Virus record (IMG/VR): IMGVR_UViG_2740892014_000012
Strand: one strand, 5' to 3'
DNA from: a virus
Lineage: Duplodnaviria > Heunggongvirae > Uroviricota > Caudoviricetes
Length of the DNA stretch: 16,521 nucleotides
Position numbers and translations under genes: made by a program. Numbering within the stretch: position 1 is the first letter of the stretch; every line of letters begins with the position of its first letter. Below, piece after piece: positions 3,694 to 7,288 of the stretch. The notes under the pieces were generated by a model, which did not search any database, had not been told where the DNA came from, and worked only from the letters and a program-made list of their open reading frames with translations.

Positions 3694-4475
3694 GCTGCCA
3701 CCTTCTGCTCAGTGGCTTTCTGTTTCAGGAATCCAAGAGCTTTCACTGCTTCGGCCTGTGTCAGTTCTGACGATGCGCGAATGTCGCGGCGAAATATCTG
3801 GGAACAGAGCGGCAATAAGTCGTCATCCCATGTTTTGTCCAGGGCAATCAGCAGAGTGTTAATCTCCTGCATGGTTTCATCGTTAACCGGAGTGATGTCG
3901 CGTTCCGGCTGACGTTCCGCAGTGTATGCAGTATTTTCGACAATGCGCTCGGCTTCATCCTTGTCATAGATACCAGCAAATCCGAAGGCCAGACGGGCAC
4001 ACTGAATCATGGCTTTATGCCGTAACATCCGTTTGGGATGCGACTGCCACGGCCCCGTGATTTCTCTGCCTTCGCGAGTTTTGAATGGTTCGCGGCGGCA
4101 TTCATCCATCCATTCGGTAACGCAGATCGGATGATTGCGGTCTTTGCGGTAAATCCGGCACGTACATGATTCATTGTCCTGCTCAAAGTCCATGCCATCA
4201 AACTGCTGGTTTTCATTGATGATGCGGGACCAGCCATCAACGCCCACCACCGGAACGATGCCGTTCTGCTTATCAGGGAAGGCGTAAATTTCTTTCGTCC
4301 ACGGATTAAGGCCGTACTGGTTGGCGACGATCAGCAATGCGATGAACTGCGCATCGCTGGCATCACCTTTAAATGCCGTCTGACGAAGAGTGGTGATCAG
4401 TTCCTGTGGGTCGACAGAATCCATGCCGACACGTTCAGCCAGCTTCCCAGCCAGCGTTGCGAGTGCTGTACTCAT
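3690..4475 (-). CDS. bet: Red beta single-strand annealing protein (Bet), 261 aa
   Basis: [59 protein letters not shown]... is near-identical to lambda Beta as recalled. Confidence 0.97.
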
Positions 4476-4480
4476 CCGTT

Positions 4481-4777
4481 TTATACCTCTGAATCAATAT
4501 CAACATGGTGGTGAGCAATGGTTTCAACCATGTACCGGATGTGTTCTGCCATGCGCTCCTGAAACTCAACATCGTCATCAAACGCACGGGTAATGGCTTT
4601 TTTGCTGGCCCCGCAGCGTTGCAAATGATCGATGCAGAGTGATTCAAACAGGTGCTGTGGAAGACCTTTTTCCATGTCGTCTGCCAGTTCTGCCTCTTTC
4701 TCTTCACGGGCGATCTGCTGGTAGTGACGCGCCCAGCTTTGAGCCTCAAGACGATCCTGAATGTAATAAGCGTTCAT
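4481..4777 (-). CDS. gam: Gam, RecBCD inhibitor (GamS form, 98 aa)
   Basis: [54 protein letters not shown]... matches lambda GamS as recalled. Upstream in-frame sequence ...YFHSHFQEF resembles the long-Gam leader. Confidence 0.95.
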
Positions 4778-4852
4778 GGCTGAACTCCTGAAAATGGCTG
4801 TGAAAATATCGCCTGCGAAATGCCGGGCTGATTAGGTAAACAGGAAAGGGGA

Positions 4853-5143
4853 TTAGTGATTCAGGCCGTTGCCGCGTCCGTCGAGAAAAACTTCCACGAG
4901 CAAATCACGGGTATAAGTGCGCTCGATGCCGCGATGCAGATAAAGCCGTCCGCGTAAATTAGCTGATGCAGTCCAGGTACCATCTTTGTGTTTGACCAGC
5001 ATTCCTGGCATGACCGCACCGCGATTAACGGTCTGCGTTCCGTAATGTTGATGAACCATAAAAACTCCTGCCCGTAAGCTGGGCTGCTGAACATATAGAG
5101 ACTTCTGCGCGTATTCAGGCGGTGGATGGCCGCCGGTTGTCAT
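4853..5143 (-). CDS. Hypothetical protein (96 aa), first ORF downstream of pL, in the kil/cIII position
   Basis: Codon composition looks coding in this frame. No similarity recognised to lambda N, cIII or Kil as recalled. An internal start (MVHQHY...) is possible. Function unknown. Confidence 0.45.
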
Positions 5144-5334
5144 AACTAAGCCGCCTCGTTGAAGCGACTAAGGTATGAAATGTTGAGTTAATTTCAGCTG
5201 GTCACACCGACGTTCACGCGTCCGTTTCACCCCTCGCACTCCCCGAAGCCTGCTGAAATTCAAACTGCGGATCTAAGCGGTCATCGCAACGGTGAATCAG
5301 GTAGTTGCCGTATCGTTGTGTTGTTGCGATGAAC

Positions 5335-5415
5335 TTATTTAAAACTATAGTTGTTTTATCGTCAACAACAAAAGTTGTTTTATTGGTTGTTTTAGATATA
5401 ACTGGTTGTATTTAG
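5335..5415 (-). promoter_or_regulatory. pL-like promoter with OL operator cluster
   Basis: Minus strand reads GTTGTTGACGATAAAACAACTATAGTTTTAAAT: TTGACG, 17 nt, TTAAAT. This is nearly identical to the pR module on the other side of cI (GTTGTTGACTAAAAACAACCATAGTTTTAATC). Repeated GGTTGT(T/A) half-sites in both orientations at 5349..5413. Confidence 0.55.
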
Positions 5416-5505
5416 GATGGATTTATTTTGTGACTTGAATCGCATAGCGATAACTGAAGCGAGGTTATGGTGGTTTTTTTAACGGTGTGTGTGATGAGGG
5501 GAGGG

Positions 5506-5533
5506 CAAAAGAAAACCCGGCACGGTGACCGGG
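5506..5533 (-). terminator. Intrinsic terminator downstream of cI
   Basis: On the minus strand: CCCGG..CCGGG stem (5-bp GC stem, 8-nt loop) followed by TTTTCTTTTG, about 120 nt after the cI stop. Confidence 0.55.
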
Positions 5534-5654
5534 ATTCTTACGCCGTTAGGTAAAGATATTATTGCGGTGGCTTAATATTACTACCTAGAGCAAAGATAGG
5601 AATTAGTTCTTTACTGAATGAGCACAATGCCCAGTTGATAATTTTTAATTGGTA

Positions 5655-6344
5655 CTACCCATGCTTCCTATATGTCTGCGGCATGCTCCCAATAACCTTA
5701 CCGAAGATGAACACCCGGTTCATCTCGTCTTTCTCGATCGGGTCCCACGGTGAGTAGCTTTTGTTATCAGAGATGACCAGCAGCTTATCCTTCATCATTT
5801 GCAGGCGCTTTACATGGGCTGTGTCGTCGTACAGAAACGCATAGATACCATCACCGTCGAAAGATTTAACTGTGATATCAACGAACAGCAGATCACCTGG
5901 TTCGATCGTTCCTGACATGCTGTCACCACGCACGTTAATGATGCGGATATTTTCCGCCTTCCTACCATCGAACATGTGACGAGCATCGTCAAACGAGTAC
6001 TCAACCGAGCGTAGAACTTCTACAAACTCACGGTTGATGACTCCCGGCCCAGCACTGACTTCTATATCAAGAACGTCAATCTTGAAGTATTTGGAATGGC
6101 TGACAGTTGATTGTATTGGTTGCACTGTACTGTCTGACATATTTCCAACGCCAGAAGATAACCATTCTGCGCGCACACCCAAAGCGTTCGCGATCTCCAC
6201 GATTTTAGTTGTTTGATTAGCTTTCCCTGTTTCGATTTTCTGAATAGCAGCCTGGCTAACCCCGACCAAATCCCCAAGCGCCTTTTGTGTAAGGCCTCGC
6301 GCTAATCTGGCTTCTTTAAGTCTTTCTGAGAGTGTTGTTTTCAT
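5655..6344 (-). CDS. cI: cI-type prophage repressor with N-terminal HTH and C-terminal LexA-like S24 autopeptidase domain (229 aa from the proposed start)
   Basis: HTH LTQKALGDLVGVSQAAIQKIETGK; S24 motifs VRGDSMSGTIEPGDLLFVD (Ser) and HVKRL (Lys); candidate Ala-Gly cleavage site in VSAGPG. The ORF-track start at 6410 lies inside the operator/promoter; the ATG at 6344..6342 (MKTTLSERLKEA...) sits 6 nt after a TACATT -10-like hexamer, suggesting a leaderless pRM-type transcript. Confidence 0.85.
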   Translation of the reverse strand: MKTTLSERLKEARLARGLTQKALGDLVGVSQAAIQKIETGKANQTTKIVEIANALGVRAEWLSSGVGNMSDSTVQPIQSTVSHSKYFKIDVLDIEVSAGPGVINREFVEVLRSVEYSFDDARHMFDGRKAENIRIINVRGDSMSGTIEPGDLLFVDITVKSFDGDGIYAFLYDDTAHVKRLQMMKDKLLVISDNKSYSPWDPIEKDEMNRVFIFGKVIGSMPQTYRKHG

Positions 6345-6448
6345 AGTCCAAATGTACAACCAAGGTTTTATTCCATCAAACGAAAATGGTTGTTGACTAA
6401 AAACAACCATAGTTTTAATCTTGATTCAAATTAACCACGGAGGTTGTT
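6345..6448. promoter_or_regulatory. Divergent OR / pR / pRM region
   Basis: Perfect 9-bp inverted repeat ATGGTTGTT-N7-AACAACCAT (6386..6410) overlapping a TTGACT -35 (6393..6398), 17-nt spacer, TAATCT -10 (6416..6421). GGAGG SD at 6437..6441, 7 nt before the cro ATG. Additional GGTTGTA half-site at 6355..6361 (minus orientation). Confidence 0.6.
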
Positions 6449-6679
6449 ATGAACCCAGCTATCAAAACAGCGATCAATATCGTTGGTTCACAAAAGAAAC
6501 TGGGCGCTGCTTGCGAAGTTTCACAGCAGGCCGTCTATAAGTGGCTTCACAACAAAGCAAAGGTATCCCCTGAACATGTCGGCAGCATTGTTACGGCTAC
6601 TGGTGGAGTAGTGAAGGCATACCAGATTCGCCCGGATCTTCCGAAGTTGTTTCCACACACCGAAAAGAACGCAGCTTAA
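6449..6679 (+). CDS. cro: Cro-like HTH regulator (YdaS/Cro family), 76 aa
   Basis: First gene of the rightward operon, divergent from cI; HTH-like segment QKKLGAACEVSQQAVYKW; good RBS. Confidence 0.78.
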   Translation: MNPAIKTAINIVGSQKKLGAACEVSQQAVYKWLHNKAKVSPEHVGSIVTATGGVVKAYQIRPDLPKLFPHTEKNAA

Positions 6680-6691
6680 ATTTCCATTTCA

Positions 6692-6704
6692 CGCTCTTTA
6701 ACAA
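6692..6704 (+). promoter_or_regulatory. boxA-like element (CGCTCTTTAACAA) in nutR position
   Basis: Matches the boxA consensus (rrn/phage CGCTCTTTAACAA) 13 nt downstream of the cro stop. No convincing boxB hairpin follows. Confidence 0.45.
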
Positions 6705-6748
6705 TAAGCAATCAACTTAACAGTCAATTCAAACTAAAGGAGTCAATT

Positions 6749-7288
6749 ATGCAACCACTTACATACCAACAGACTAGCGGATTTAGCCCGACTGCGGTGA
6801 TAAATCGTTCTCAAACAAAACAGGTGCCAGGCCACGAAAAAATCCGTGATGCCGTCCGCGCCTGGTCGGCTGTAGATAATCAGGATGTCGTTGCCACACT
6901 CATTGTGAATGAGTATCTGGAGCAGGGCGGCGGCACCATCGATTTCCCTGATGATGTCAGCCGTGCACGCCAGAAGCTGTTCCGCTTCCTCGATAACAAA
7001 TTCGATTCTGAAAAATACCGAAATAACGTGCGTGAACTGACCCCGGCAATTCTGGCGGTACTACCGCTGGAATATCGCGGTTACCTGGTTGAGCAGGATA
7101 GCTTCATGGCTAGGTTGGCTGAAATGGAAAAGGAACTCAGTGAGGCAAAACAGGCTGTCATTCTCAACGCACCACGCCACCAGAAACTGAAGGAAATTAG
7201 TGAAGGTATTGTGTCGATGTTTCGTGTGGACCCAGATCTGGCTGGTCCATTGATGGCGATGGTTACTACCATGCTGGGGGCGATATGA
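6749..7288 (+). CDS. YdaT-family protein in the cII position (putative CII-equivalent regulator), 179 aa
   Basis: Position immediately after cro; motifs NEYLEQGGG and LTPAILAVLPLEYRGYL resemble YdaT-family proteins as recalled; AAAGGAG RBS 6 nt upstream. Family assignment is from memory, not from a search. Confidence 0.55.
   Translation: MQPLTYQQTSGFSPTAVINRSQTKQVPGHEKIRDAVRAWSAVDNQDVVATLIVNEYLEQGGGTIDFPDDVSRARQKLFRFLDNKFDSEKYRNNVRELTPAILAVLPLEYRGYLVEQDSFMARLAEMEKELSEAKQAVILNAPRHQKLKEISEGIVSMFRVDPDLAGPLMAMVTTMLGAI

Follow-up and report, generated by a model that had tools for sequence, protein, structure and literature searches.

A Rac KilR-family cell-division inhibitor gene and its conserved upstream leader in the predicted early-left operon of a lambdoid Escherichia coli prophage

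Introduction

Where two open reading frames (ORFs) overlap on the same strand of a prophage early operon, it has to be asked which of them is a gene, where its translation starts and what its product does. Here, we address these questions for a locus in IMG/VR virus record IMGVR_UViG_2740892014_000012, the whole analysed stretch of which (16,521 nt) is called the window throughout. The window represents a lambdoid E. coli prophage, integrated beside icd. Both ORFs are present at the coordinates and in the different frames of one strand that had originally been predicted:

4853..5143, minus strand: 96-aa ORF with an ATG start
4861..5094, minus strand: 77-aa ORF, likewise starting with ATG and shifted by one base relative to the frame of the 96-aa ORF; spurious (see below)

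Results

Many complete genomes match positions 4700-5700 with 100% identity, and among 5426 complete E. coli genomes, 1987 cover at least 80% of the 1-kb segment carrying the gene. Phage records deposited as complete genomes (PhiR34_1 and Turner, 99% identical in this region) correspond to the prophage type. According to RefSeq, the neighbourhood consists of int, xis, several small genes, exo, bet, gam, a cell-division inhibitor and an S24 repressor, followed by a Cro-like regulator, a YdaT-domain protein and the replication proteins O and P. The proposal that the gene occupies the position of kil and cIII in lambda was borne out, as it adjoins gam. The surrounding features are:

4481..4777, minus strand: gam, the next gene downstream of kil (Pfam Gam, E=3.7e-63)
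5516..5533, minus strand: intrinsic terminator closing the repressor transcript (terminator scan: CCCGGTCACCGTGCCGGG then TTTTCTTTTG)
5655..6344, minus strand: CI-like repressor with HTH and S24 peptidase domains (RefSeq CDS, ORF 5655-6410; Pfam Peptidase_S24 and HTH_3)
6449-6679: YdaS/Cro-like protein (Pfam)
6749-7288: YdaT-like protein (Pfam)

Two observations concern the cargo of such prophages. From about position 9252 onward, directly after P in the RefSeq annotation, the plus strand carries a large inverse autotransporter gene with an intimin/invasin-like beta domain, which looks like a moron in the early-right region. The close relative PhiR47_2 holds a GevA/GevT toxin-antitoxin pair (L002:3341-4769) between the repressor gene and the terminator preceding pL, and this site is a variable cargo slot, the equivalent of rexAB in lambda.

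The 96-aa translation matches phrog_294 ('Kil protein for bacterial septation inhibition') with E=1.2e-38, residues 20-96 lying on profile positions 4-80 of 83, and KilR of the E. coli K-12 Rac prophage matches the same profile with E=7.5e-35. By BLASTP, residues 29-96 align with K-12 KilR at 36% identity (22 of 61 positions, E=9e-13), with M1 aligned to M1. The ORF had been described as unassigned, a status that could not be upheld: one of the two overlapping frames has clear homology to a known Kil family, Rac KilR, an outcome originally named as refuting the proposal, and the gene is already annotated as Kil in several phage records and in RefSeq, where the product of 4853-5059 is named 'phage encoded cell division inhibitor protein':

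4853..5059, minus strand: kil, 68-aa KilR-family cell-division inhibitor, stop codon included (PHROG 294; RefSeq CDS WP_000233576.1 with the same coordinates)

The profile NF008465 of NCBIfam (PRK11354, FtsZ inhibitor protein) aligns over its positions 1-70, starting from residue 29, and scores 61.9 bits with the 96-aa form and 63.1 bits with the 68-aa form, neither of which reaches the curated cutoff of 92 bits. Because the score stays below this cutoff, the protein is assigned to a sister clade of K-12 KilR, as a relative outside the narrow K-12 KilR subfamily. In the precomputed annotation, PF27398 is assigned to nearly all database homologues; our own Pfam scan of both frames, run with a Pfam copy older than PF27398, found no family.

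An AlphaFold2 model of the 68-aa protein (46 homologues, pLDDT 85.7) displays six beta strands within residues 8-59, with residues 1-7 and 60-68 as coil, and agrees with the AlphaFold3 description of KilR as a beta-rich core with unstructured N and C termini (PMC12482147). A Foldseek search against the PDB gave nothing significant (best E=0.38), with matches to SH3-like barrels such as eIF5A. KilR disrupts Z rings and causes filamentation, its toxicity is suppressed by extra FtsZ, and at higher levels it mislocalises MreB (PMC12482147, PMC5793797). The unstructured C-terminal tail of KilR is required and acts in a length-dependent manner, since KilR without its last 3 residues keeps toxicity and filamentation while cell rounding is lost (PMC12482147). 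In the protein studied here the tail following the conserved VFL comprises 9 residues, compared to 12 in KilR. Given the 36% identity to KilR, we infer that the 68-aa protein would likewise inhibit FtsZ.

That the protein does not resemble lambda Kil, cIII or N, as had been noted originally, was confirmed with three different searches. Lambda Kil gave no BLASTP alignment at E<=100 and matches phrog_3924, 2461 and 2055, not 294; no CIII family (PHROG 550) was found at E<=1 in the PHROG scan of both frames; and tblastn of lambda N and phi80 N against 5144-5545 and the whole window returned nothing below E=0.28.

While the family is clear, the length of the product has been annotated in different ways. 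RefSeq places the start at the ATG at 5059, resulting in 68 aa, and other depositors report 128 or 139 aa on near-identical DNA. In the alignment of database homologues, protein conservation starts exactly at M29, with N-terminal extensions being absent or unrelated, and most homologues from Klebsiella, Enterobacter, Citrobacter, Salmonella and Shimwellia have 66-68 aa. All 24 loci from other genera display an ATG at or beside the aligned position together with a purine-rich Shine-Dalgarno (SD) sequence 5-9 nt upstream, six of the 24 contain in-frame stops 1-4 codons 5' of the conserved ATG, and the DNA upstream of these 24 homologues is unrelated to the window. The corresponding elements in the window are:

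5065..5069, minus strand: SD sequence AGGAG, 5 nt before the kil ATG (read from the sequence; unpaired in the centroid fold)
5060..5143, minus strand: in-frame extension of 28 codons, by which the 96-aa ORF arises; most likely an untranslated leader

It is therefore only in part that the preference for the 96-aa frame as the single real one stands: the frame is supported by PHROG 294 (E=1.2e-38) and by pN/pS (see below), but the length is not, since protein conservation is limited to the last 68 codons. Judged from these alignments, the product most likely has 68 residues, not 96.

The DNA between the two candidate start codons is part of a larger conserved element, for which the following features were found:

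5060..5178, minus strand: portable leader cassette of about 120 nt, with hairpins A and B, the GAAGUCU motif, a short hairpin (5070-5084) and the SD sequence of the next gene
5140..5178, minus strand: hairpin A (5178-5161 pairs with 5157-5140), which sequesters AUG 5143 together with a GAGG located 10 nt 5' of it
5118..5134, minus strand: possible hairpin B (GGCGG-CCAUCCA-CCGCC), within the near-invariant motif UUAUGACAACCGGCGGCCAUCCACCGCC
5118-5145, minus strand: near-invariant 26-nt motif UUAUGACAACCGGCGGCCAUCCACCGCC, containing AUG 5143; single copy in the window

Read on the pL-sense strand, the cassette is ordered as CAUACC, hairpin A, UUAUGACAACCGGCGGCCAUCCACCGCC, a variable spacer, GAAGUCU, the short hairpin (5084-5070) and the SD sequence of the next gene. 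Among E. coli haplotypes, 5060-5167 constitutes a conservation island with 3 polymorphic sites in 108 nt. By comparison, kil has 16 polymorphic sites at its 68 third codon positions (Fisher p=2e-5), and 12 such sites lie in the 96 nt 5' of the island.

Hairpin A is supported by covariation. At least seven different stem sequences occur; over 62 distinct sequences, 97% of cells are paired, and compensatory changes are found in 7 of 16 pairs. Cells with double changes number 135, compared to 38±4.5 in shuffles, none of 500 shuffles reaching 135, and the covariation score of 0.35 drops to 0.06 or less when the partners are slid. The predicted fold of this hairpin has -16.5 kcal/mol (z=-4.7), and the E. 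coli polymorphisms within it (5140, 5151 and 5170) are all structure-neutral. Since G-U pairs are frequent, the structure can be placed on the RNA of the minus strand. RNAalifold recovers hairpins A and B unaided; no covariation was seen for the putative pairing of hairpin B. Folded as a whole, the 293-nt leader is no better than shuffles (z=-0.12), and only local hairpins stand out.

The cassette is not confined to this prophage type. Using blastn, the stretch of about 5099-5180 was found as an independent unit in several phages: directly after N and its terminator in phi80, after the gp38 terminator and before a 68-aa kil in HK225, and also in Klebsiella phage KO-TP1, in ENT1 and in Enterobacter phages (loci L112:2996-3140, L113:2495-2640 for HK225, L114:1498-1620, L115:1495-1620 and L116-L242). 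The motif TTATGACAAYCGGCGGCCATCCACCG occurs in at least 120 IMG/VR contigs. Of 5426 complete E. coli genomes, 2321 contain a 62-nt core, over which no feature is annotated. In phages of Escherichia, Klebsiella and Enterobacter, the place of the cassette is in the early-left operon, usually directly after an intrinsic terminator. The gene that follows starts 84-110 nt past the AUG and is diverse, belonging to the KilR family in about a third of the cases and otherwise to a phi80-type membrane protein, a family ending in ...ADAMLRAREAS or several others. As the cassette is absent from the examined stretches of lambda, Rac and HK022 and from 21 of the 24 other-genus kil loci, it is not part of kil.

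No Rfam match over the leader was obtained at E<=1 in scans of the window (4400-6800) and four relatives, and a text search of the literature for the motif or its peptide found nothing, so the leader cassette seems to be undescribed. We tentatively propose that the leader 5060-5178 is a portable cis-regulatory RNA, placed by lambdoid phages before the gene that opens the early-left segment behind a terminator, where it might control translation or transcript survival, often of toxic genes. Since there is no N in the window, it would here be the sole control element between pL and kil. A put-like antiterminator is disfavoured, because the cassette occurs as a single copy with none near pR and in most phages follows a terminator.

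Two small RNAs of related loci should be mentioned. In K-12 Rac, RefSeq annotates the small RNA KilS about 175 nt upstream of kilR (L005:6406-6503, minus strand), so that regions upstream of kil can yield RNAs of their own; a comparison of the leader with this upstream region of Rac kilR revealed no real similarity. In HK225, a match to isrB, an Hfq-binding sRNA, was obtained from Rfam (L113:3413-3510, minus strand; 38.2 bits with a gathering score of 35 bits), lying antisense among the small genes downstream of kil.

Among the other readings of this region, the one that survives best, while still being unlikely, is that the cassette is a translated leader peptide (MTTGGHPPP...), in which an EF-P-dependent polyproline stall would tune the downstream gene. 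The AUG and the first nine codons, including the PPP motif, are near-invariant, several variants with insertions of 12 and 15 nt nevertheless retain the ...EVLY-stop ending in frame, and in KO-TP1 the stop of the upstream ORF overlaps the next start codon. However, four of about ten spacer variants shift the frame, and the leader start codon and its GAGG are sequestered in hairpin A. Furthermore, the third codon positions are almost invariant while the adjacent hairpin stem changes freely: when scanning for MTTGGHPPP with third codon positions left free, 115 of 122 copies were still identical, an estimate of invariance that is biased by motif-based sampling.

Less probable still is that the 96-aa ORF itself is a real product or second isoform, with Kil translated from AUG 5143 and carrying a 28-residue N-terminal extension. 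This ATG and the frame behind it are open in the window type, a GAGG is located 10 nt 5' of it, the AUG is invariant in every cassette copy, and gene callers often report the 96-aa form (a protein cluster of 472 member sequences, P0001). Nevertheless, the extension is absent or unrelated in homologues of other genera, and both the AUG and the GAGG are paired in the covarying hairpin of -16.5 kcal/mol. In the E. coli haplotypes the 84 nt of the extension (5060-5143) contain only two polymorphic sites, both at first codon positions and both non-synonymous. In other cassette copies the same AUG opens ORFs of 16, 20, 21, 23, 26, 28 or 43 aa that end before unrelated genes, or an ORF that fuses with what follows; past the ninth codon the frame is lost, the spacer measuring 9, 10, 12, 14, 22, 23 or 25 nt and thus varying by non-multiples of three. 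Since the cassette recurs before unrelated genes and the frame of its spacer is not kept, the 96-aa ORF is best read as an accidental in-frame join of a portable leader and kil. AUG 5143 is probably not the start of Kil, although a minor 96-aa isoform may exist.

The original prediction had further placed the ORF as the first gene after pL. Upstream of the leader, we found the following elements:

5337..5365, minus strand: predicted pL, with TTGACG (5365-5360), 17 nt and TTAAAT (5342-5337); start of transcription at about 5330; mirror of the cro-proximal promoter
5339..5393, strand not assigned: OL operator repeats of the AAAACAAC..GTTTTA type, common to OR at 6356-6420 (direct and inverted repeat families D1, I1, I2, I4 and I10)

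The blocks pL/OL (5337-5393) and pR/OR (6356-6420) are near-perfect mirror images (TTGTTGACGATAAAACAACTATAGTTTTAAAT and TTGTTGACTAAAAACAACCATAGTTTTAATC), with 19 nt at 5339-5357 being 95% complementary to 6400-6418 before the cro-like gene. Conservation across 68 related E. coli haplotypes is lowest at 5340-5420 (60-75% identity, compared to 90-99% in the flanks), as expected for immunity-specific operators. We infer the position of pL from this block, since the consensus promoter scan did not report 5337-5365. The only site which that scan did report lies on the plus strand inside the OL region (5324-5351; TTGCGA, 16 nt, TATAGT), is directed at the 3' end of the repressor gene and is probably noise, as one site was found with 2.9 expected by chance. 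A hairpin that stabilises the 5' end could be formed by a perfect 10-nt inverted repeat with a 32-nt loop (5281-5332, minus strand; TCATCGCAAC ... GTTGCGATGA), located where the predicted pL transcript begins.

Between predicted pL and kil, none of the ORFs displays a coding signature. An Arg-rich ORF of 31 aa (..RLRGVRGVKRTRERR..; 5168-5263, minus strand) lies in the same frame as kil, and its TAG stop is polymorphic, with T in 18 haplotypes and C in 50, which explains the 128-aa and 139-aa 'Kil' annotations in relatives. As a remnant of N or as part of a fused N-Kil it was rejected: it is without similarity to N, its stop is polymorphic, its polymorphisms are distributed 5/2/5 over the codon positions and four haplotypes carry a 5-nt insertion. 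With the mirrored pL/OL block (5337-5383), the hypervariable island and no coding ORF in between, we consider it plausible that kil opens the left early operon behind a leader of about 270 nt. The predicted position in the operon is supported to this extent, with predicted pL about 270 nt upstream and no conserved ORF in the interval.

It is from this position that the gene had been considered a candidate early regulator. A regulator like cIII or N in place of a division inhibitor is very improbable: while the gene sits just past pL, where N is located in lambda, and no N homologue is present in the window, its homology to KilR is clear from PHROG 294 and BLASTP, similarity to the cIII PHROG, lambda N and phi80 N is lacking, and the predicted fold is a small beta protein without an arginine-rich or amphipathic-helix motif. 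By homology, the gene rather encodes an inhibitor of host cell division.

For the choice of frame, the codon-substitution analysis that had been suggested originally was carried out on cross-genus homologues. In the 22 gapless sequences the Kil frame is conserved, with a mean pN/pS of 0.23, compared to 1.5 for the 77-aa frame and 1.7 for the remaining one, and variable columns are distributed 33/29/64 over the Kil codon positions (chi-square p=1.6e-4). The IMG/VR set, in which all 16 core polymorphisms fall on third positions, was replaced by this cross-genus set and left out of the frame evidence, because its loci had been picked for identical protein and the argument would be circular. The 77-aa frame contains 2-5 stops in 21 of 21 gapless homologues from other genera, and the length of its ORF differs even between near-identical E. 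coli haplotypes with identical Kil protein. A few database 'proteins' that include the 77-aa frame (P0004, P0037, P0045) combine it with the Kil frame into chimeras of the kind expected from frameshifted sequences, and most likely derive from frameshifted assemblies or pseudogenes; they could mislead searches for homologues of the 77-aa ORF. Although the window and 54 of 69 near-identical haplotypes keep this ORF open, we regard a genuine overlapping gene at 4861-5094 as practically excluded, because its pN/pS is 1.5 and every relative carries stops, its translation has no match in Pfam, PHROGs or NCBIfam and no SD sequence precedes its ATG; the ORF is on this comparative evidence a chance open frame.

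Discussion

In this study, we explored which protein is encoded at the head of a predicted early-left operon and what precedes it. We consider it very likely that 4853-5059 encodes a 68-aa inhibitor of the Rac KilR family, plausibly as the first gene after predicted pL, with AUG 5143 in the leader hairpin probably not being the start and the 77-aa ORF being open by chance.

We propose a model in which loss of the CI-like repressor would allow transcription from predicted pL at about 5330, with the transcript passing through the leader of about 270 nt into kil, gam, bet and exo. Translation would begin at ATG 5059 behind the exposed AGGAG, and the small beta-rich protein with its flexible C-terminal tail would block Z-ring assembly and possibly act on MreB. 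The induced host would then be expected to filament transiently, as found experimentally for K-12 KilR.

The kil gene is already known and annotated, the 96-aa ORF being this gene with an over-extended start, and the finding of yet another routinely annotated division inhibitor of the Kil/KilR type matters little in itself. It does imply that the database annotations of 'Kil' with 96, 128 or 139 aa are over-extended, and that the 77-aa ORF should be ignored. The leader cassette is the only element here that seems undescribed. If functional, it would represent an RNA element that is common in temperate enterobacterial phages and has escaped annotation; it could account for the restraint of toxic early genes and would bear on the physiology of prophage induction.

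The closest known system is KilR of K-12 Rac (b1352, 73 aa), which shares PHROG 294, 36% identity over 61 residues, a similar length and a predicted beta core with floppy ends, as well as its location in the early-left operon, flanked by the immunity region and the recombination genes. The protein of the window differs in staying below the NCBIfam cutoff (62-63 compared to 92 bits) and in its tail of 9 instead of 12 residues. The operons differ as well: in Rac, ydaG, ydaF and sieB lie between racR and kilR, which precedes recE/recT, whereas kil of the window directly follows predicted pL and is located beside gam, bet and exo of the lambda type. Rac is moreover defective, while the prophage type of the window matches complete phage records. 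Expression of KilR is under the control of OxyS, NusG and Rho (PMC5793797).

Lambda Kil (47 aa, PHROG 3924) shares with kil of the window the slot immediately upstream of gam in the pL operon, but has no detectable sequence similarity to it and belongs to different PHROGs. FtsZ is the reported target of lambda Kil according to work cited in PMC5793797, and lambda Kil and Rac KilR have their function in common, but not their sequence (PMC5793797). DicB is not known to be related to the window protein in name or family. It is a small protein of the Qin prophage that blocks division and is mentioned together with KilR (PMC5793797).

For the leader cassette, the comparison is one of RNA elements. 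From these it differs in having no Rfam match at E<=1 and in the absence of its motif from the examined lambda and HK022 stretches. The elements in question are the 5' mRNA structure of lambda cIII (Rfam Lambda_thermo), the put RNAs of HK022 and proline-rich leaders such as MgtL, which may resemble the cassette as cis-acting RNA structures or leader ORFs of early phage operons with paired hairpins or an involvement of the start-codon region. Compared to put in particular, the cassette is present in one copy per window with no copy at pR. In most phages it follows a terminator, not a promoter.
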